Shown here: one piece after another, positions 1,625 through 27,674 of the stretch
How positions within the stretch are numbered: position 1 is the first letter of the stretch
Layout: the number at the start of each line of letters is the position of its first letter
From: Candidatus Vogelbacteria bacterium
Lineage (GTDB): Bacteria > Patescibacteriota > Minisyncoccia > Phycocordibacterales > XYD1-FULL-46-19
Direction of reading: 5' to 3'
DNA length: 46,104 nucleotides
Assembly (NCBI GenBank): GCA_023267075.1
Contig: JAHFNY010000003.1
Location: 1-46,104 of the forward strand
Program-made: the position numbers and the translations under genes
The notes under the pieces: model-generated
Database searches by the model: none
Told to the model about the DNA's origin: nothing
What the model saw: only the letters and a program-made list of their open reading frames with translations

Positions 1625-4272
1625 GATTGAACATGATTATAAACCTGTTGGCTAACAGAAGTATAATTATTATTAATTACCCCTTTTAATAACTGTTTTT
1701 GTCCAGCATTTAAGTTCCCACTAACTCTCTGTAATTGCGCTAGATCAAGATGAGCTAGGTTGTTGATAATCTGTTGGTTATTTAGATCTAAAAGATTGTT
1801 GCTAAACATTTGGTTAATTTCATTATCACTCATCTGACTAATCTCATTTCTAAATTGATCAGTTGATAAGCGACCAGACGTTAAGTTGCTTACTTTAGAA
1901 GCTAAGGCTGGCGTTACTGGGGGAGTATTGGTTCTTGCATTGGCATTTTGACGGAAGAATATTCCTCCAGGTGATGATCCTAAATAACTTTTAGCTGAAT
2001 TTGTACCCATAGTCTGTATTTTTTGACCAATAATTTGTCTATCTCCTCGGCTAAGCGTATTTTCTCTTTGAATTGCTGCCAAGTCATCACCACCAAGATG
2101 ACTAATCACTCGATCATTAGTTAGGGTTTCTTTCTTTAGTCCAGCAACTTCTTTGCTAGTTAATTTATGAAGTTCTGCTTCTAAATCTCCTTGACCACCA
2201 GCAAGAATTTTATCAATGTTTTCTGATACAGCTTTTATCTCAGCTATTCTTAGTTGTTCTTTTCTTAATTTCTCGAAGGTATCTTGTTTTTCCCCTTTCA
2301 GACCTTTAGTAAGATTATCTACTACCCCCTTATGTCTATTATCTATAGGCAGTTTAGAATGAAGATCAAATTTTTCTCGATCAGATAATTCACTAAAGGC
2401 TTTTTTCCTATCGGTTTCATTTAAGTTAGCTAAGTAACGAGCCTTGTCTTCTGGGGCTTTAAGGTTTCCAAGTAATTCTTTTTGCCTGTCTTGGCGTTTT
2501 TTCAGTCCTTCATCATAATTTGATTTAGCAATGCCAAATTTGGCTTGACCTCCATAACCAACTATCTGTCTTAAAGTACCACCAATTCTAGGTGACCGGC
2601 TTTCAATGTTTTTCATTAAGCTTGAATTGGCGATAGATCTTGAAGCTAAGCCAACAGTCCGAGTTAAAGCAAAACCAGCTCCTCCACCAACAACTGTGCC
2701 TAGGGCAAATGATTTTAATTTACTCCCTGCTTTGTGGGCTACTCCACTTCCAGCAGCCCCAATATTTTTAGCGGCAATAAATGAACCCAGCATCATGCCG
2801 TTAACAATAATGAAATAGACTAGAGTGACAACTCCAGCATGGCCCCCTGAGCTGGCAGCTATTTGGTCCCTTAAACTACCACCTGGTTCAAGTATGAAAG
2901 TTATAGTTATTAACATGAATAACATCATTACGGGAGCAAATAATGATTGGCTAATCAATTCTTTTAACCATCTTTGGGTATATTGACCTAAACCGGGGAC
3001 TGCTATACCTAAAAAGTAAACTGGCGAGGTTATAATTAGAATTATAAAAATTAGAGCCCTAGAAATTAATAACCAAGCCCCGGCTAACATTACGAAGGCA
3101 GTTATAAGAAATAGAATCATTTTTCCAAAAGCAGAAATAATTACCGTACCCATTCCAGAAGCAAAGTCACCCAAAGGATCAGCTTGAGCCAAAGTTACTC
3201 CAACATTCTCTAATTTCAAGGATTTAATAATTGCGGTAGTAAAATCACCCCCGCCAATAGTATTTATTTCATTATAAATTGGAATAGTGAAGATATTTGA
3301 TATATCTATTACTACTTTAGGTAAAATAGCACTAAAATTAACTAACAAAGCTACAATTATAATTTTAACTAATGCGGCTTTGGTATCTATCTTTATAACT
3401 GAATTTAAAACTGTACCAATGGCAATGTAAAGGAGAACAAAAATAAAAAATAAGTTACAGATATCCCTTACTATCCCCCAAGCGGCTCCAACCGCTTTCA
3501 TGCTCGCGAAGTAATAAAAATCAGTTATAGAAACTTTGGCTGCGACGTTAAAAATTGAATTAGCGAAGTAGGCAAGATAAGAAGATATCGAAGCCATTAA
3601 GTTACCAATCATCGCTATTAACTCTAAAGTACAACCAAACACACTAAAATTGGTTAAAGTACAAGACTGGGAACGTATGCGTTCAGCTTGGTCACTAGCA
3701 GCAAGACGAGTAGCTGTTTGTTCAGCGTGAGTATTTAATTCAGCCTGATTTTTCCTTTGGAGTTGATTTAATTCTTCTTGAGTGGCCCCGTTTTTTTGGG
3801 CTTGGAGTTCTTGAATTTTAAGATCAGCCGCATATAATTGTTGCCGGTATTTCTCTAAATCACTTTGGAGACTCGCGGTTTCTTGGCTCCATTTTTTTTG
3901 GGTTTGGCCAAAGAAATAATCATAGCCTATTTTACCTCCAATAGCTTGCGGACCGCCCACAGAAAGCCATGGTGAATTAAATACCGATTTAATTGAATCC
4001 CACCCACCACTAATAGTATTAGTAAAAGTTCCCCAGTAACCACTATTAGCTTCTATTTTAGCTGAAGTATCATCAATCGATTTATTTATTTGGTCTATTT
4101 GTTGTTGAAGAGTCTGGATTTGAGCATCTAGATTAGCGCTTGTGGTTGGGTCAACTGACTGGTTAGCCGCATAAGATAGAGAAGGTAGAACCAAAGACAA
4201 AATAAAACTGGCAAAAATTATATTTGTCGTTATTTTTTTGATCCACCCAGTTTTTTTGCCAAGAGAGAACAT
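1618..4272 (-). CDS. Polytopic membrane protein, TrbL/VirB6-like channel component, with an N-terminal coiled coil and a long hydrophilic C-terminal domain (884 aa)
   Basis: N-terminal signal/anchor, then a Q/L-rich coiled coil. A block of about 7-8 hydrophobic helices spans roughly residues 205-530, followed by a charged tail. Its position is in the operon with PrgI-like and VirB4-like genes. Confidence 0.6.
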   Translation of the reverse strand: MFSLGKKTGWIKKITTNIIFASFILSLVLPSLSYAANQSVDPTTSANLDAQIQTLQQQIDQINKSIDDTSAKIEANSGYWGTFTNTISGGWDSIKSVFNSPWLSVGGPQAIGGKIGYDYFFGQTQKKWSQETASLQSDLEKYRQQLYAADLKIQELQAQKNGATQEELNQLQRKNQAELNTHAEQTATRLAASDQAERIRSQSCTLTNFSVFGCTLELIAMIGNLMASISSYLAYFANSIFNVAAKVSITDFYYFASMKAVGAAWGIVRDICNLFFIFVLLYIAIGTVLNSVIKIDTKAALVKIIIVALLVNFSAILPKVVIDISNIFTIPIYNEINTIGGGDFTTAIIKSLKLENVGVTLAQADPLGDFASGMGTVIISAFGKMILFLITAFVMLAGAWLLISRALIFIILIITSPVYFLGIAVPGLGQYTQRWLKELISQSLFAPVMMLFMLITITFILEPGGSLRDQIAASSGGHAGVVTLVYFIIVNGMMLGSFIAAKNIGAAGSGVAHKAGSKLKSFALGTVVGGGAGFALTRTVGLASRSIANSSLMKNIESRSPRIGGTLRQIVGYGGQAKFGIAKSNYDEGLKKRQDRQKELLGNLKAPEDKARYLANLNETDRKKAFSELSDREKFDLHSKLPIDNRHKGVVDNLTKGLKGEKQDTFEKLRKEQLRIAEIKAVSENIDKILAGGQGDLEAELHKLTSKEVAGLKKETLTNDRVISHLGGDDLAAIQRENTLSRGDRQIIGQKIQTMGTNSAKSYLGSSPGGIFFRQNANARTNTPPVTPALASKVSNLTSGRLSTDQFRNEISQMSDNEINQMFSNNLLDLNNQQIINNLAHLDLAQLQRVSGNLNAGQKQLLKGVINNNYTSVSQQVYNHVQSW

Positions 4273-7534: not shown

Positions 7535-8283
7535 TCGCTTAATTGTAAATCTTCCGCTCGTTTATCGCCATATTGGGCTAAAAGTTTGTCGTTCAAATTT
7601 AAATTATTTTTTAACTTCTTTCTTTTACTGCTGAAGCCTTGTTTTAAGCAAGAGAAAAATTCTTGTTCACTAATTTTATTTTCTAGAAAAAGCTTTTTAG
7701 AAATATTTTCTATTACCAAGATTGCTGAGTCAACGTTAGGCGCGGGTTGAAAGTTGCCCCGAGGTACTGTTTTAAGGTATTTAGGCGCACCATAGACTTT
7801 TACACTTAAAGATAAAACACTTTCTTTTTTATCGCGAGCTTGCCTGCCGATAGGCACGGCGACAATTCTCTCTGCTACTTCTTTCTGCAGCATTACTACC
7901 ATTAAACTGGGTTGATTGGGGGTGGTGAGAAACTTTTTTAAAAATTCACCAGTAATGTAGTAAGGTAAATTGGCGACAATCTTATAGGCTTCATTAATAA
8001 TAATGGGATCAAAGTCTAAAATATCGTGATGGATTATTTCTAACTTCCCACTTCTAATTTCTAATTCAAATTTTTCTTGCAATTCTTCAATTAATCGGTC
8101 ATCTTTCTCAATTGCCACCACGCGGGCGCCAGTCTTTAGTAATTCGGCGGTTAAAATCCCTTGGCCCGGACCCACTTCCACCACTCGTTCTCCCACACTA
8201 ATTTTAGCCGCTGCCACAATCTCCTTCACGATTTTCTCGTTCTTAAGCCAATTCTGCCCGAGAGATTTCTTTGCCTTTACCAT
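7507..8283 (-). CDS. rsmA: 16S rRNA (adenine1518/1519-N6) dimethyltransferase
   Basis: KSLGQNWLKNEKIV, the VVEVGPGQGILT SAM-binding motif, and NLPYYIT. Confidence 0.9.
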   Translation of the reverse strand: MVKAKKSLGQNWLKNEKIVKEIVAAAKISVGERVVEVGPGQGILTAELLKTGARVVAIEKDDRLIEELQEKFELEIRSGKLEIIHHDILDFDPIIINEAYKIVANLPYYITGEFLKKFLTTPNQPSLMVVMLQKEVAERIVAVPIGRQARDKKESVLSLSVKVYGAPKYLKTVPRGNFQPAPNVDSAILVIENISKKLFLENKISEQEFFSCLKQGFSSKRKKLKNNLNLNDKLLAQYGDKRAEDLQLSDWLTLCKII

Positions 8284-8338
8284 TGCCCAACTATACGTGG
8301 ATTAGCCGATTTTTGCCAACTTTGCTAGCATTTAAACT

Positions 8339-8854
8339 ATGCCCGAAAATTACTTAAATCCTAAGGTTTATATTAAAGAAACGGCCAATAAGGGCCGAGG
8401 CCTTTTCGCTAAAGAAAAGATAAATAAAGGCGAAACTATTGAAAATACAACCGACATTCAAATTTTACCAAAAAGCGAATTGGCTAAAATGCCAAAAATT
8501 TGGCGGTCCTTATGTTATGAAATAAATGATCACGAAGAAATTTGCCCTAAAGATATCAATAATCCACCGGCCGGTTTTCTTATTAATCACTCATGTGAGC
8601 CAAACGTCGGTTCAAGTCTTAATTTTTTTGAAACTGTAGCAATGAGAGATATTGAACCAGGTGAAGAATTAATGTATGACTATGCGATGACTGATTCCGG
8701 AAATTATGAAATGAAATGTGAGTGTGGAACAAAAAGTTGCCGGCACTTTATCCGTGGTTCAGATTGGCAACGATCTGAATTGCAGGAAAAATATAAGGGC
8801 TATTTTCAAAAAAATATTCAAGATAAGATTGATAAAAAAAATTTAGAAAAATAA
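8339..8854 (+). CDS. SET-domain protein (putative lysine methyltransferase)
   Basis: GRGLFA, the NHSCEPN motif, ELMYDY, and a C-terminal Cys cluster (CECGTKSCRHF, post-SET-like). Confidence 0.85.
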   Translation: MPENYLNPKVYIKETANKGRGLFAKEKINKGETIENTTDIQILPKSELAKMPKIWRSLCYEINDHEEICPKDINNPPAGFLINHSCEPNVGSSLNFFETVAMRDIEPGEELMYDYAMTDSGNYEMKCECGTKSCRHFIRGSDWQRSELQEKYKGYFQKNIQDKIDKKNLEK

Positions 8855-20270: not shown

Positions 20271-22457
20271 TTAAAAACGTGGGCGGTGATTATTATTGTT
20301 GCGGTAACCACCATTACCATTAGTTCGGGGTGGTGGGAGAGGATTAGTGGAAGGTTTAGCCCCGTGATTGGCGGCGTAATCCGGGTCGGCCAGTTTGAGC
20401 GACAGATTCACCCGGCCCTTATCATCAATTTCTTTTACTACCACCGGCACTTCATCACCAATGTTTACTACGTCAGTCACCCGATCCACGCGGAAGGGCG
20501 CCAGTTCCGAGATGTGGACCAAGCCCTCCGTATCATGACCAATTTTTACAAAGGCGCCAAAGTCCATTAGGCGCGTTACGGGCCCGGTAAACTTCTCTCC
20601 AGCTTTATATTCATGAGTGATGCTCTCTACTTGAGCCTTGGCGCGAGCCACGCCGTCGCCCTTGCCGGTGATGTAGACCGAGCCATCATCCTCAATCTCT
20701 ATCTCAGCGCCGGTTTCTTCAGTAATTTTTTGAATCACTTTGCCGCCCGGGCCAATGACGGCGCCAATTTTATCTACCGGGATCTTCATAATCGCAATTT
20801 GGGGCGCGGATGGCTTGAGAGTAGCGCGGGGTGCAGGGATGGCCGTGGTGATCACGTCTAAAATTTGCAGGCGCGCCGCGCGAGCTTGCGCTAGTGCTTC
20901 CGTTAAGATCTTTACCGGGATTCCGCCGACTTTAATATCTAATTGAATGCCGGTCACACCGTCTTTGGTCCCCGCCACTTTGAAGTCCATATCGCCAAAA
21001 TGATCCTCCGGCCCTTGAATATCGGTCATAATTTTATAGTCGTTCTCATTCTCCTCACTCATCAGTAAGCCCATGGCAATCCCAGCCACTGGCGCTTTAA
21101 TCGGCACGCCGCCGTCCATGAGGGCCAGCGTTGAGCCGCAGACTGAGCCCATGGAGGTGGAACCATTGGAAGCGAGGGCTTCTGAGACGAGGCGGATAGT
21201 GTACGGGAAGTCTTCTTTAGCTGGAATGACACCGCGTAATGATTTTTCCGCTAGCGCGCCGTGGCCAATCGCCCGGCGATTCATCCCGCCTAAGCGGCCA
21301 GTCTCACCAACGGAAAAGGGGGGGAAGTTATAATGATGCATAAAGCGCTTCTTGCCGCTTACTTCCATCCCTTCCATTAGTTGAGAATCTTTCGGTCCAC
21401 CTAAAGTGAGAACAGAGAGGACGTGAGTTCCACCGCGATAGAAGATGCCATTACCATGAACAATTTCCGATAAGCCGCCGGCTTGGGCAAAAAGCGGCCG
21501 CACTTGATCCATCCTCCGACCATCAGCCCGACGCGAGTTCTTAATCCCCTCGTCGTGAATCAGTTTATCTACTTGTTCTTCATAATATTCTAGAGCTTGA
21601 TTTAGATTAGTGTCTGGCTTTTTTTCTATTACCAATTTCTTCCATTCATCTTTCAGGGCGTAAATCGTACTCTTATCGCCACTAAAAGTTGCGGCATCAA
21701 GTTTGGGTAAAATTTCTGCAGCAAAGAGGTTAGTCACTTCACTCGCCAATTCTGGCTTAGGGAAGGTTAATTTTTCTTTCCCTAATTTAGCAACAATTTC
21801 TTTCTGCCACGCTTCTAATTTAGCCAACTCCCCTACTGCTTGAGTAAAAGCGGCGGCTAAAGTGGCTTCTGGGATTTCTTTGGCTTCGGCTTCAATCATA
21901 TTAATCTTGCCCTCATTGCCGCAGATTAAGAGTTCTAAATCAGCGTCTTCTCGCTCGGGATAGGTTGGATTCACAATCGTTTGATTATTTTTTAATCCCA
22001 AGCGGACGGCGGCCACTGGTCCGGCCCAGGGAATGTTAGAAATGCCAAGCGCCAAGGAAGCCCCAATCACCGCTAAAATATCTGGATCATTATTTTCATC
22101 AATCGAGAGAACGGTGGCCACAATTTGGACTTCATTCCGCAAGTGGGCGGGGAAGAGCGGTCGGATGGTCCGATCAATAATCCGGCCGCTTAAGATCGCC
22201 TCTTCACTGGGTCGGCCCTCGCGCTTAATAAAGCGGCTACCCAAGATCCGTCCGGCGGCATAGAACTTTTCCTCATATTCCACCGTGAGGGGGAAATAAT
22301 CCAAGCCGTCTTTCTGCCCACCAATCACCGCGGTGACGAGGACGACGGTCTCGCCGTAGCGCATAATCACGGCACCACTTGCTTGATCGGCCAAATCATT
22401 AAACTGGGCGGTAAGTTTGCGCCCGGCCACTTCTAAAGAAAATTCTTCTTGTTTCAT
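20271..22457 (-). CDS. pnp: polyribonucleotide nucleotidyltransferase (PNPase)
   Basis: Two RNase PH-like halves, KH (IGPGGKVIQKI) and S1 (GPVTRLMDFGAFVKI) domains. 728 aa. Confidence 0.95.
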   Translation of the reverse strand: MKQEEFSLEVAGRKLTAQFNDLADQASGAVIMRYGETVVLVTAVIGGQKDGLDYFPLTVEYEEKFYAAGRILGSRFIKREGRPSEEAILSGRIIDRTIRPLFPAHLRNEVQIVATVLSIDENNDPDILAVIGASLALGISNIPWAGPVAAVRLGLKNNQTIVNPTYPEREDADLELLICGNEGKINMIEAEAKEIPEATLAAAFTQAVGELAKLEAWQKEIVAKLGKEKLTFPKPELASEVTNLFAAEILPKLDAATFSGDKSTIYALKDEWKKLVIEKKPDTNLNQALEYYEEQVDKLIHDEGIKNSRRADGRRMDQVRPLFAQAGGLSEIVHGNGIFYRGGTHVLSVLTLGGPKDSQLMEGMEVSGKKRFMHHYNFPPFSVGETGRLGGMNRRAIGHGALAEKSLRGVIPAKEDFPYTIRLVSEALASNGSTSMGSVCGSTLALMDGGVPIKAPVAGIAMGLLMSEENENDYKIMTDIQGPEDHFGDMDFKVAGTKDGVTGIQLDIKVGGIPVKILTEALAQARAARLQILDVITTAIPAPRATLKPSAPQIAIMKIPVDKIGAVIGPGGKVIQKITEETGAEIEIEDDGSVYITGKGDGVARAKAQVESITHEYKAGEKFTGPVTRLMDFGAFVKIGHDTEGLVHISELAPFRVDRVTDVVNIGDEVPVVVKEIDDKGRVNLSLKLADPDYAANHGAKPSTNPLPPPRTNGNGGYRNNNNHRPRF

Positions 22458-23706: not shown

Positions 23707-23731
23707 AAAAAGAAAGGGATATCGCTATCCC
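23707..23731 (-). terminator. Intrinsic terminator overlapping the end of the 2-TM gene
   Basis: Minus strand: GGGATA-GCGA-TATCCC hairpin followed by TTTCTTTT. Confidence 0.55.
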
Positions 23732-24063
23732 TTAAAGACCTTCTTCACCAGAAGGCCCATGCCCGCTATTACCAGTATGAGGGGTAACAGGGCAAAGACA
23801 ATTTGGGATACAGCCTCGACCAGACGATCGAGGAGTTCACGGCCGAGCTCGGGGCTGACCATAAATGTCAATACCGAGACTACGACTCCCATAGCCATCA
23901 CGCCGACCGGGGTGAATAAATATCGGAAAAACTGGTTCCAGTTCCGCATCGCCCTTCTCCTTCCAATTGAAAGATCTATTTTGGAAAAACGAGACTGCCT
24001 CATTTTTCCAACACGCGACTTTCTGTTGCCAGGCGTCGCTACCCCGCGGTGCTTAACGAGCAT
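23725..24063 (-). CDS. Small basic 2-TM membrane protein (up to 112 aa; start uncertain)
   Basis: Two hydrophobic helices (VGVMAMGVVVSVLTFMV and VFALLPLILVIAGMGLLV). Preferred over the overlapping plus-strand ORF, which lacks such features. Confidence 0.5.
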   Translation of the reverse strand: MLVKHRGVATPGNRKSRVGKMRQSRFSKIDLSIGRRRAMRNWNQFFRYLFTPVGVMAMGVVVSVLTFMVSPELGRELLDRLVEAVSQIVFALLPLILVIAGMGLLVKKVFKG

Positions 24064-24089: not shown

Positions 24090-24182
24090 TTAATTCCTCT
24101 TGATGGGGTTATCGCCCCCACGGATATCCTTAACTTCGGAATCCGTGAGGATTTGGCCCTGACTGTCCGTGCGAACGGTCAT
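24090..24182 (-). CDS. 30-aa peptide MTVRTDSQGQILTDSEVKDIRGGDNPIKRN with a double-glycine-leader-like motif
   Basis: AAGGAGG sits 7 nt upstream of the ATG, and the ORF lies downstream of a near-consensus promoter. It is not in the ORF track because it is under 60 aa. Confidence 0.4.
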   Translation of the reverse strand: MTVRTDSQGQILTDSEVKDIRGGDNPIKRN

Positions 24183-24298
24183 AGCGCTCCCTCCTTGTTG
24201 TTGGTTCCCAGAGACCAATCCCGCTCACGGCCACTAGCGTTTAGATACTGGGCTGGGGGCCAAGAGCGAGACAGGTCATTTCAAGGTATCTGCCAGCC

Positions 24299-24326
24299 AT
24301 TATAGTCGGATAAATAATTTTGTCAA
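24299..24326 (-). promoter_or_regulatory. Near-consensus sigma70 promoter for the peptide/2-TM operon
   Basis: Minus strand: TTGACA (24321-24326), 16-nt spacer, TATAAT (24299-24304). The predicted 5' UTR is about 110 nt. Confidence 0.65.
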
Positions 24327-24517
24327 GTACTTATGACACTTCATCTTTATATATATCTAAAATATGTTGTAAAATAAGGATATTTTAATACTTAAAAATG
24401 TAATGATATTATTACATTCACTTTTTTAAACAAGTCAAAAAACAATTTATGTCAGTTTTTTAAAACAGTCAAAATTAGCCTAAAATTAGGGTTTATACAC
24501 TGCTATGTTGGTTTTGC

Positions 24518-24545
24518 TTGACAAAAATCTACCATTTGCTATAAT
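24518..24545 (+). promoter_or_regulatory. Near-consensus sigma70 promoter for the 24552-24846 RNA
   Basis: TTGACA (24518-24523), 16-nt spacer, TATAAT (24540-24545). Confidence 0.65.
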
Positions 24546-24551
24546 GGCCCT

Positions 24552-24846
24552 AGAACATTGGCAAGCGGAAGGAGGTGTCCTATGGTCGATTAGTCTTCTG
24601 GAGTGCCACTTGCTGGATAGATCATAGGATCCAGCAAGTGGCATAAACCAGATAAACTGGTCGCAACACCTAAATTGTTCTTTCCGCCCCAACACCACGT
24701 CCAACTCTAGATGGAGGAATTATTTATGGGCGACGATGGTGGAAAGTAGTTAGCTCTCCGTACCGTATTTAGAAAAAATTAGTTTTATGGAGAGCGAATC
24801 AAGAGGGGGAGACCAGCACAGGCCGGTCTCCCCTATTTTTATTTTT
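24552..24846 (+). ncRNA. Structured RNA of about 290 nt, unknown class
   Basis: A consensus promoter lies upstream. A perfect 14-bp hairpin spans 24605-24642. Long-range pairings are GCGGAAG/CTTTCCGC and AGGTGT/ACACCT. A further helix is CACCACGTC/GACGATGGTG. The terminator is GGGGAGACC/GGTCTCCCC plus a T-run at 24806-24846. Only 3-12 codon ORFs are present. Confidence 0.55.
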
Positions 24847-25582
24847 GTAGATCAAATATTAACTTGATTAAGCTTCTCATGGTATCAGCTAAGTCTTTAC
24901 TAACAACTGATATTCCCCCAACGGTGTCGCCTAATATATTTATTTTAGTCTTGTCTCCGTAGACACTAACGTCACATTTTATAGGATATTTATTTCCATC
25001 TATTTTAATTCTTTGAGCAGTGTTGTCTGAAGGCCGTTCACCGCTTTTATAAGTATAAATAGCTTTTGATTTTATATTGTTTTCGATTCTGATAGATTTT
25101 AATTTATCCAGTTCCTGATTGGTAAAAATATCCTCTATTAAATCACGGGGGTAAACCATATAAACTTCTTTATCAGATGAATTAGTATCAAAAAAGTCTT
25201 GCATAGAACTTAATACTCCGTCCCTACCTTCAAAATATTTGACCACTGGCCGTTCCCCGCTCTCACGTTGAATGCTTTTCAGTTGTGGAATTAGATCTTT
25301 GATTAGTTTAGCTTGTTCTTCTAGAACGATTTTTTGCCGCTCCACATAAGTTTCTAAACGTTCTGGCGATTCTGCTTGATAATTGGTTTTTTTATCTATT
25401 TGGATTTCACTCACTAACCCTTTTTTCATTAATGACCCCAATACTAAGTAGATGGTGGTACGATTGATCTTGGTTTTTTGCGATAATCCCAAGACCGAGT
25501 CATTATCAACCGCTAGCAAGGTTACATAAATCGTTGCTTCTTTATCTGAAAATCCCAAGTCTTGGAGATATTTTTCTAACAT
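24839..25582 (-). CDS. TrmB-family transcriptional regulator
   Basis: The N-terminal wHTH LQDLGFSDKEATIYVTLL...INRTTIYLVLGSLMKKGLV is typical of TrmB. Confidence 0.85.
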   Translation of the reverse strand: MLEKYLQDLGFSDKEATIYVTLLAVDNDSVLGLSQKTKINRTTIYLVLGSLMKKGLVSEIQIDKKTNYQAESPERLETYVERQKIVLEEQAKLIKDLIPQLKSIQRESGERPVVKYFEGRDGVLSSMQDFFDTNSSDKEVYMVYPRDLIEDIFTNQELDKLKSIRIENNIKSKAIYTYKSGERPSDNTAQRIKIDGNKYPIKCDVSVYGDKTKINILGDTVGGISVVSKDLADTMRSLIKLIFDLQK

Positions 25583-27377: not shown

Positions 27378-27626
27378 TTACTTGTCACTTTTAGCGGCCA
27401 ATTTCTTTTTCTTGGTCTCAAGATACTTCTCGTGAGAGCGGCGCTTAGACACCAACTTAAGTAAGCCACGGCGAGAGTGATTGTCTTGCTTGTGCTTCTT
27501 TAAATGAGAGGTAAGTTCATTGATCCGCTCGGTTAAGAGGGCAATTTGGACCTCAGAAGAGCCCGTATCCGTCTCGTGGACGCGGGTTTTCTTAATCAAG
27601 ACTTGCTTCTTTTTGGTCGCTAACAT
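27378..27626 (-). CDS. rpsO: 30S ribosomal protein S15
   Basis: [43 protein letters not shown]. The start is taken at the internal ATG (27624-27626), because TTGCAT-17-TAGACT lies just upstream. Confidence 0.9.
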
Positions 27627-27674
27627 GTTGACAAGTCTAGCATATCTGCTCAAAAAATGCAAGGCCTATGATAT

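Follow-up and report, generated by a model that had tools for sequence, protein, structure and literature searches.

In the 46,104-nucleotide stretch of contig JAHFNY010000003.1 from a Candidatus Vogelbacteria bacterium (assembly GCA_023267075.1; this whole stretch is called the window below), positions 24,552 to 24,846 hold a gene for a structured RNA of about 290 nucleotides (nt). We found it to be a real RNA gene of bacteria of the Candidate Phyla Radiation (CPR), which matches no described RNA family and is partnered tail to tail, as an invariant arrangement, with a gene for a TrmB-like regulator. The most conserved elements of the family are two Shine-Dalgarno (SD) sequences and the tiny open reading frames (ORFs) that follow them, both starting Met-X-Asp. 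A sequence-only reading of this DNA had taken the GGAGG boxes and tiny ORFs as incidental and had proposed a regulatory or catalytic RNA. No evidence points to catalysis, and because the tiny ORFs are the most conserved elements and carry coding-type signatures, the label noncoding is probably wrong. Our preferred reading, which we hold tentatively and at somewhat less than an even chance, is that of a "twin minigene" regulatory RNA read by ribosomes, whose fold would gate the first frame (ORF1) within the regulon of the neighboring repressor.

The RNA is predicted to be transcribed from a sigma-70-type promoter (24506 to 24545, plus strand) that is kept in the homologs. Its -35 element TTGACA (24518 to 24523) and -10 element TATAAT (24540 to 24545) are 16 nt apart, with a TG extension, and match the consensus at 12 of 12 positions (24518 to 24545). 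The predicted transcript runs on the plus strand from a TAGAAC start region to a U-run (24552 to 24845, with both the start site and the 3′ end inferred). The GC-rich terminator hairpin (24806 to 24833) and U-run, together 24806 to 24845 on the plus strand, overlap the stop codon of the convergent TrmB-like gene. The promoter, the shared terminator, the helices, and the ORFs of the sequence-only reading were all present at or within 2 nt of the positions it gave, and with its own promoter and terminator the RNA is indeed a stand-alone unit. It is also as highly structured as had been supposed, with a minimum free energy (MFE) of −120.2 kcal/mol versus −78.2 ± 5.4 kcal/mol in 200 dinucleotide shuffles (z = −7.76; 0 of 200 as stable). 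The plus strand of the locus folds more stably than the minus strand.

A covariance scan against Rfam, proposed together with the sequence-only reading, was run on the whole window with Rfam 15 (4,227 models) at gathering thresholds and returned tRNAs only, with no family at the RNA locus. At E ≤ 10, the best matches in 24300 to 24950 reached 10 to 21 bits against thresholds of 33 to 100 and were hairpin-type chance matches; a scan of the Ro60-linked homolog at locus L003 likewise gave no credible family. ARAGORN found seven tRNAs elsewhere in the window, no tmRNA, and zero matches at 24552 to 24846. With no Rfam match at threshold or at E ≤ 10 and no tmRNA, we therefore count the RNA as unclassified, as the sequence-only reading did. 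Literature searches yielded no account of such a CPR RNA or of Met-X-Asp mini-ORFs. A blastn search of the element against phage genomes gave no match, and a pattern scan of viral contigs gave one, a chance match within a phage coding sequence. A riboswitch was ruled out by the absence of a downstream gene and of any Rfam aptamer match. A type I toxin mRNA of the hok, tisB, or timP type was rejected as well, the transcript having no ORF of 30 or more amino acids and the conserved ORFs being 3 to 11 codons long.

Homologs of the RNA are known from about 40 Patescibacteria loci. A search of species-representative genomes with the TrmB-like protein of the window gave 22 Patescibacteria loci, of which 17 carry the canonical RNA directly 3′ of the TrmB gene on the opposite strand, as found by nhmmer and pattern search. 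Three further, more distant loci of the 22 carry a variant RNA at the same position. The pattern of SD, AUG-NNN-GAY, and stop was unique to the RNA site across the 22 loci of about 12 kb each (about 270 kb) and occurs once in the window versus 0.02 times expected. A metagenome scan that started from the RNA (promoter, AAGGAGG, and ATGNNNGACTAR) gave 26 matches. Thirteen have the hairpin architecture and are true members; the other 13, with neither hairpin nor TrmB, are chance matches. A TrmB homolog was found in 12 of the 12 true matches with sufficient flank, mostly convergent and directly downstream of the RNA, and eight of eight additional loci found through TrmB carry the RNA. A covariance model of the core (R1) gave one strong match (55 to 93 bits) per family locus, none elsewhere in 483 kb, and no second match in the window. 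Apart from TrmB, no protein neighbor was conserved across loci.

The ORFs of three and seven codons behind GGAGG boxes were as the sequence-only reading had described them. ORF1 is ATG GTC GAT TAG (Met-Val-Asp-stop; 24582 to 24593, plus strand), and an SD with AUG-NNN-GAY occurs in all family members. In 26 of 26 RNAs, AGGAGG is followed after 3 to 9 nt by ATG-NNN-GAY and then a stop. The eight further loci found through TrmB all have an SD-preceded Met-X-Asp ORF1, with the stop directly after Asp in six of them; ORF1 of loci L051 and L056 extends 2 to 4 codons beyond Asp. Across the family the stop codon is TAG, TAA, or TGA and never TGG. Because its partner is the loop of a hairpin (P4, described below), codon 2 is free to vary.

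The second SD-preceded frame (ORF2) lies in an A-rich stretch, 35 to 98 nt past the structured 5′ domain. In the window (24713 to 24749, plus strand), SD2 is GGAGG at 24713 to 24717 and ORF2 is ATG GGC GAC GAT GGT GGA AAG TAG (MGDDGGK) at 24726 to 24749. Codon 3 is Asp in 26 of 26 RNAs, and the stop follows directly in about two thirds of the members, while about a third continue. The start codon is ATG or GTG, Gly at codon 2 is written GGC, GGA, GGT, or GGG, Cys appears as TGT or TGC, and Asp as GAC or GAT. Compared with its closest relative, locus L050 (MGDDGGN), the window ORF2 has 4 nt differences, all at third codon positions, within flanking RNA that can barely be aligned. The synonymous variation across the family is a coding signature and speaks for selection at the codon level. 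There is no conserved helix around ORF2 to account for its conservation. Two helices that the sequence-only reading assigned to a second domain, CACCACGTC/GACGATGGTG and GCTCTCC/GGAGAGC, are present in the window but are not conserved even in L050, where the SD2-ORF2 segment is the only part of this domain conserved with the window. The latter helix is a hairpin between ORF2 and the terminator (24753 to 24795, plus strand), and relatives have a hairpin of different sequence. Judged by these patterns, ORF2 is very probably translated and ORF1 probably so.

One explanation of the conserved frames is a bicistronic messenger for micro-peptides, in which tri- to heptapeptides such as MGD or MGDDGGK act as signals or cofactors. 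That the window and L050 keep ORF2 at the amino acid level fits this, as does the recurrence of GD(D/G)G in the peptides of distant members (MKRGDDG, MKHRTYRGDDG, and MGDGGGND). However, codon 2 of ORF1 is set by RNA pairing and has many identities, most of the ORFs encode three residues only, and the neighborhood has no conserved genes for export, modification, or a receptor. We consider this explanation very unlikely.

The conserved 5′ domain (24556 to 24693 in the window) was analyzed in a structure alignment of 22 sequences (A1). Its outer helices are the nested pair claimed by the sequence-only reading, P0 (GCGGAAG/CTTTCCGC, 24565 to 24571 with 24680 to 24687) and P1 (AGGTGT/ACACCT, 24573 to 24578 with 24666 to 24671), both part of the MFE fold. 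Their 5′ strands (24565 to 24578, plus strand) contain SD1 (GGAGG, 24571 to 24575), whose partner is a CCUCC-like strand immediately 3′ to P2. Across homologs, the native P0/P1 strands pair at −14.0 versus −9.7 kcal/mol for cross-sequence duplexes, and 0 of 5,000 permutations were as good. The family sequences being related, shuffle statistics overstate independence, for which slid-register and cross-sequence controls compensate in part. The whole tested structure has 94.5% of alignment cells paired versus 34 to 48% when the same pairs are slid by 1 to 3 columns.

Within these helices, the perfect 14-bp hairpin that had been called extendable to 16 bp is P4 (24603 to 24618 with 24629 to 24644, loop 24619 to 24628), which is always a perfect 16 bp, with compensatory changes at 15 of its 16 pairs. 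The pseudoknot 5′ strand CCTATG (24579 to 24584, plus strand) includes the AUG of ORF1 and pairs with CATAGG (24623 to 24628) in the P4 loop. For this pseudoknot (columns 17 to 24 with 63 to 70), 5 of 8 pairs show double changes and 93% of cells are paired, and in relatives the two sides covary (CTATGCC with GGCATAG, ACCATGGG with CCCATGGT, and TGCATGTT with AACATGCA). The homolog search suggested by the sequence-only reading thus found covariation-supported structure. In P2, the bases 24587 to 24591 (plus strand), which span the third base of codon 2, the whole Asp codon, and the first base (U) of the stop, pair with GGTCG (24659 to 24663); this helix, with a downstream AGUCG as partner, is 87% paired in the alignment. 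P3 (24596 to 24600 with 24647 to 24651) is predicted by single-sequence MFE folds to start just after the ORF1 stop codon and to enclose P4 (24596 to 24651, plus strand). The CCAG/CTGG hairpin claimed earlier exists in the sequence, but the window MFE fold and most homolog folds form P3 instead. The 3′ strands of P2, P1, and P0 and a CCAA (24690 to 24693) that pairs with TTGG at 24558 to 24561 close the domain (24659 to 24693, plus strand). Between the window and L050, whose TrmB proteins are 77% identical, there are three compensatory changes in P4 and one in P0.

In this predicted structure, the SD, the AUG, and codons 2 and 3 of ORF1 are all sequestered by pairing, and the pairings are shown by covariation. 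The P4 closing pair is G·U in 20 of 22 sequences, so the functional strand is the RNA strand shown here. P4 as a DNA-level inverted repeat or operator was accordingly disfavored, since this G·U would be an A·C mismatch on the other strand. The fixed length of the P4 arm fits a loop that folds back to the base of P2 in cis, and the contact of the loop with the start region may instead be made in trans, in a dimer.

Neither the pairing of the loop with the start codon nor the strict partnership with the TrmB-like gene had been noticed in the sequence-only reading, which named TrmB only for the shared terminator. Some family members depart from the canonical form. The variant RNA of loci L017, L019, and L020, in the same convergent position next to TrmB genes of 47 to 51% identity (L020, 64% over two split ORFs), is without the locked ORF1; its single SD-preceded ORF ends in GDDG or GGDD (MKHRTYRGDDG, MKRGDDG, and MKRSTHGGDD). 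A subfamily (L006, L007, L008, L013, L015, L016, and L022) has an extra 5′ hairpin domain between promoter and SD1, in which the stems covary and a CUUAAAA bulge is conserved; the window copy has no such domain.

The structure could also be that of a noncoding RNA that binds a protein, with the SD-, AUG-, and GAC-like sequences kept as structure or contact sites. Possible partners would be the phospholipase D (PLD)-like domain of the TrmBL2-like regulator, Ro60 or polynucleotide phosphorylase (PNPase) in the manner of Y RNAs, or RNase III on the 16-bp helix. The perfect P4 of fixed length, its conserved G·U closing pair, the compact pseudoknotted domain, and the burial of the RNA 5′ end in a helix are what one might expect of such an RNA. 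The neighboring regulator has, in its model, a nucleic-acid-binding PLD-like fold with no catalytic histidine, Ro60 genes occur in five related loci, and PNPase is in the operon of the window. What such binding leaves unexplained is ORF2, which has no conserved helix and yet keeps SD spacing, AUG or GUG, synonymous codons, and in-frame stops. We regard protein binding as the main function of the RNA as unlikely.

Because Ro60 and PNPase are nearby, identity with a Y RNA was examined. Bacterial Y RNAs are expected within about 4 kb of the Ro60 (rsr) gene on the same strand, with the Ro60 motif GNCGAAN0-1G (metazoan GGUCCGA) and a tRNA-like module (PMC4201824). Like Yrn1 and YrlA (PMC4201824), the CPR RNA is a structured RNA in the range of about 100 to 300 nt near Ro60 (five loci) or PNPase (the window), and its GAC/GUC-containing helix is reminiscent of the metazoan GGUCCGA/UUGACUAG stem. 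Unlike them, it always lies on the strand opposite Ro60, and Ro60 accompanies it in only 5 of about 40 loci, most loci having none within the flank examined (up to about 6 kb). The motif, as GUCGAA, is found in about 3 of 24 P2 3′ strands. With the strand and the motif against it, no tRNA-like module, and no Rfam match to Y_RNA or YrlA at E ≤ 10, identity with a Y RNA was ruled out.

The partner gene (24839 to 25582, minus strand) encodes a TrmBL2-like regulator of 247 amino acids with a winged helix, a coiled coil, and a C-terminal PLD-like fold without the HKD motif. Its N terminus is a TrmB winged helix (Pfam PF01978, 2.8e-14). In a Foldseek search with its AF2 model (pLDDT, 87.5), TrmBL2 (5bpd/5box) came out on top over the full length (E of about 1e-11), and the C-terminal domain of the model resembles NucT/PLD proteins, without the catalytic histidines. 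With a TrmB winged helix, a coiled coil, and no sugar-binding domain at its C terminus, the protein has the arrangement that marks the TrmBL2 type. TrmBL2 is an archaeal chromatin and repressor protein. The closest homolog clusters of the regulator are 54 to 77% identical, and 530 clusters were found at E ≤ 1e-10. In most loci, a TGTCA-N7-TTGACA box (palindrome TGTCA-N8-TGACA) lies over the -35 elements of both the RNA promoter and a divergent promoter. In the window, the copy at the divergent promoter (24299 to 24338, minus strand; elements 24326 to 24299, matching the consensus at 12 of 12 positions) is intact, with the palindrome TGTCAAGTACTTATGACA at 24321 to 24338 over the -35 element. 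The copy at the RNA promoter (24506 to 24523) is degenerate, with TGTTG (24506 to 24510, plus strand) in place of the TGTCA half-site of the relatives. Since the two promoters share the box, the adjacent TrmBL2-like protein, the candidate binder of this predicted operator, probably controls both. The coupling of the RNA to the divergent peptide operon that had been suggested earlier is thus plausible from the loci in general.

The same layout allows the RNA to be seen as an antisense or convergent-transcription regulator of the TrmB-like gene, like lambda oop/cII or prgQ/prgX, in which the overlapping 3′ ends would cause transcriptional interference or form RNase III-sensitive duplexes, giving double-negative feedback. 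The invariant tail-to-tail arrangement with a terminator overlapping the stop codon, the interrupted U-tract in several loci that makes read-through plausible, and an operator-like box suggesting that the regulator represses the RNA would all be in keeping with this. However, it accounts for the synteny and not for the lock, the pseudoknot, or the twin Met-X-Asp frames, and the overlap is little more than the terminator hairpin. We think it distinctly improbable as the whole explanation, and it could be an output arm of the ribosome-read RNA rather than a rival to it.

In the reading we favor, transcription would start from the near-consensus promoter, under predicted control of the TrmBL2-like repressor through the shared box, and the first 140 nt or so would close into the domain that pairs every ORF1 signal. 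With all ORF1 signals paired, initiation at ORF1 would therefore be possible only cotranscriptionally, before the lock closes, or once the lock has been opened; the time for initiation would run out with the synthesis of the P4 loop (about +40 nt) and of the 3′ strands (about +75 to +105 nt). A ribosome occupying or dwelling on Met-X-Asp-stop would hold the domain open, and ORF2 would be freely accessible throughout. The RNA would partition between a locked and a ribosome-held form by the state of early translation at the Asp codon. It would in this way report on or exploit early elongation and termination at that codon within the regulon of the TrmBL2-like repressor, whose divergent operon carries RNA-quality-control cargo (PNPase here, Ro60 and hammerheads elsewhere). 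Candidate outputs would be the stability of the RNA itself, read-through antisense to the regulator gene, and a trans effect on tRNA-Asp or ribosome pools. For the second of these, the U-tract after the terminator hairpin is interrupted in several loci, so read-through into the regulator gene is plausible.

Several points weigh against a ribosome-read RNA. The support for it is comparative throughout, and as the folded RNA hides ORF1, translation of this frame is inferred solely from its conservation. The conserved GAC-U of ORF1 doubles as a P2 strand, which may be an RNA-structural reason for the conservation of ORF1 alone. In ORF2 of L051, Glu replaces Asp, the sole exception seen. There is no regulated gene in cis downstream of the RNA. 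A conserved alternative pairing of the anti-SD1 strand with SD2 was not found (native, −7.23 kcal/mol; cross-sequence, −7.26 kcal/mol), and the idea that the anti-SD1 strand, once freed, switches to SD2 was dropped for want of specific support. Nor was the RNA complementary to the leader of the divergent operon beyond what is seen across loci (longest complement, 7.19 nt native versus 7.35 nt cross-locus), and trans pairing with this leader was ruled out on these grounds.

Among known systems, the leaders of erm, cat, and ABC-F resistance genes are leader-peptide attenuators. The E. coli toiL upstream of topAI is a sensory upstream ORF (PMC12121999). Like such sensory ORFs, the CPR RNA has a strong SD and a very short ORF inside a structure that contains the ribosome-binding site (RBS), and where a ribosome stands on that ORF should determine which fold forms. 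It differs from them in having no downstream gene in cis, its terminator facing a convergent gene instead, in having two ORFs that both start Met-X-Asp, and in sequestering the RBS of the ORF itself rather than that of a downstream gene; the anti-SD1/SD2 comparison also revealed no antiterminator or antisequestor alternative. Of the features of a leader peptide, the RNA thus has the SD-preceded short ORF overlapping a structure and is without the controlled cis gene with mutually exclusive folds.

The bar minigene of phage lambda is AUG AUA stop, and known minigenes act through the last decoded tRNA. A two-codon minigene of axe-txe acts in cis (PMC8708949). The CPR RNA resembles both in its SD, two to three codons, and stop, with a last sense codon that appears to matter, and could act without making a meaningful protein. 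Unlike them, it is a dedicated gene, conserved and highly structured, in which a lock covers the minigene; it also carries a second minigene and has its own regulator as partner. By its sequence, ORF1 has the makeup of a lambda bar-type minigene, an SD with an ORF of two to three codons, a specific last sense codon, and a stop. A programmed minigene would therefore be another explanation: on induction of the RNA, repeated translation of the three-codon frames would release or hold fMet-X-Asp-tRNA(Asp), or hold ribosomes, and by tying up tRNA-Asp or ribosomes would slow growth, with the lock as a restraint. The strong SD, the three-codon ORF with a conserved last sense codon, two copies per RNA, a codon 2 that is free to vary, and a very strong promoter with an operator-like box over its -35 element agree with this. 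However, about a third of the ORF2s run beyond Asp, such a mechanism does not call for conservation of the peptide MGDDGG(K/N), and toxicity in E. coli requires limiting peptidyl-tRNA hydrolase (Pth). To us, a growth-slowing minigene seems improbable.

Pseudoknots between a loop and an RBS also occur in the IncIα/IncB repZ-repY leader and in the E. coli rpsO (S15) operator. In the type I toxin mRNA timP, such a pseudoknot takes part in translational control (PMC11228461). As in these three, a hairpin loop of the CPR RNA pairs with the initiation region, and the pseudoknot is predicted to gate the start by the 30S subunit. In timP, repZ, and rpsO, the controlled ORF encodes a real protein (toxin, Rep, and S15), and each system has a known ligand, either an antisense RNA or a protein, whereas ORF1 has three codons. 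The timP and repZ pseudoknots activate, whereas that of the CPR RNA covers the AUG itself and should, from its sequence, inhibit. In its working, the CPR RNA would come closest to a sensory upstream ORF or leader peptide, or to a minigene. It is kin to short-ORF translational switches and stands outside any named family.

If the ribosome-read RNA goes further and is a sentinel, its twin minigenes, one of them locked by the pseudoknot, would turn the state of early translation into a message to the TrmBL2-like repressor, and it would be a new class. The repressor would in this case govern an RNA-quality-control regulon of CPR bacteria (Ro60, PNPase, and transcripts with hammerheads). The state sensed might be ribosome loading on the nascent RNA, the integrity of tRNA-Asp or initiator tRNA, termination, or ribosome stability. 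The function would be analogous to the sensing of damaged tRNA by RtcR, but built from an RNA interrogated by the ribosome. We consider this extension doubtful.

CPR bacteria (Patescibacteria) make up a large share of bacterial diversity, and to our knowledge almost nothing is known of their gene regulation and noncoding RNAs. In the family described here, a well-conserved regulator is accompanied by an RNA in which the features under selection are ribosome signals that surround frames of three codons. Should these frames be translated, they would rank among the shortest for which comparative data indicate selection, and a sensor of the upstream-ORF kind would here have turned into an independent gene. 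A candidate RNA-surveillance regulon in organisms not yet cultivated can be approached here through the operator box, both promoters, and both structured RNAs, and the pseudoknot at the start codon, with its 16-bp arm of fixed length, is open to direct testing in vitro.

The second structured RNA is the leader of the divergent operon (24205 to 24292, minus strand), a long hairpin with the near-invariant apical loop CCAG-N5-8-AUCG. Compensatory changes were seen at 11 of its 19 predicted pairs, homologs are present in L001, L003, L011 to L014, L027, L050, and others, and it matched no Rfam family. The first ORFs after the leader hairpin encode small peptides of several unrelated types: MTVRTDSQGQILTDSEVKDIRGGDNPIKRN in the window (24129 to 24221, minus strand), MSDGTTMTHxEWLAWL... 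in L007, L008, and L022, a peptide of about 50 amino acids with DGRPK...PCGG in L005 and L012, and M(D/T)YxVxxxGxVxV... in L016 and L054. A 112-amino-acid ORF of the window (23725 to 24063), the start of which is probably internal (MRNWNQFF...), encodes a small membrane protein common to L038.

Type III hammerhead ribozymes lie 3′ of small peptide ORFs in divergent transcripts of at least two loci (L001, 7992 to 8046, and L006, 11525 to 11579, at Rfam gathering thresholds); others were recognized by eye in L054 (about 3615 to 3665) and L007 (about 5300). Ro60/Rsr genes (TROVE and Ro60 vWA domains), absent from the window, are on the side of the divergent operon in the five related loci, namely, L003 (8797 to 10581), L012 (8409 to 10172; the same as L030 and L034), L021 (6263 to 7711), L005 (at the contig end), and L054 (3775 to the end). 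Directly upstream of Ro60, L003 (about 7760 to 8760) and L012 (about 7860 to 8390) have a gene-poor region of about 1 kb with long blocks conserved between the two loci and many predicted hairpins. It gave no Rfam match and is a candidate site of further noncoding RNAs, possibly the true Y-RNA partners.

RNA-metabolism genes of the window are PNPase (20271 to 22457), which ends the codirectional string of divergent genes, an NYN nuclease, and rpsO (27378 to 27662). Across the loci, one or another of RNase Y (in relatives), a beta-CASP RNase, a CCA-adding enzyme, an NYN nuclease, and rpsO is near the RNA. rpsO and pnp are normally neighbors in bacteria. In the window they are about 5 kb apart, and between them lie the genes for the NYN nuclease, the TrmBL2-like regulator, and the RNA, along with an unannotated 326-amino-acid ORF and the peptide operon. 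Searches against libraries of defense-system and phage proteins gave only generic helix-turn-helix and NYN matches.

A second TrmB-family paralog lies a few kilobases away in L001 (35 to 715), L005 (28 to 699), L018 (4743 to 5501), and L050 (70 to 810). The AT-rich spacer between the two promoters (24345 to 24515) was considered as a replication origin, which found no support. It contains conserved boxes, TGTAAAATAAGGATATTTTAA at about 24369 to 24392 and a related box at about 24478 to 24500, with similar boxes in relatives, and a perfect 8-bp inverted repeat (AATGTAAT-N6-ATTACATT) at 24397 to 24418.

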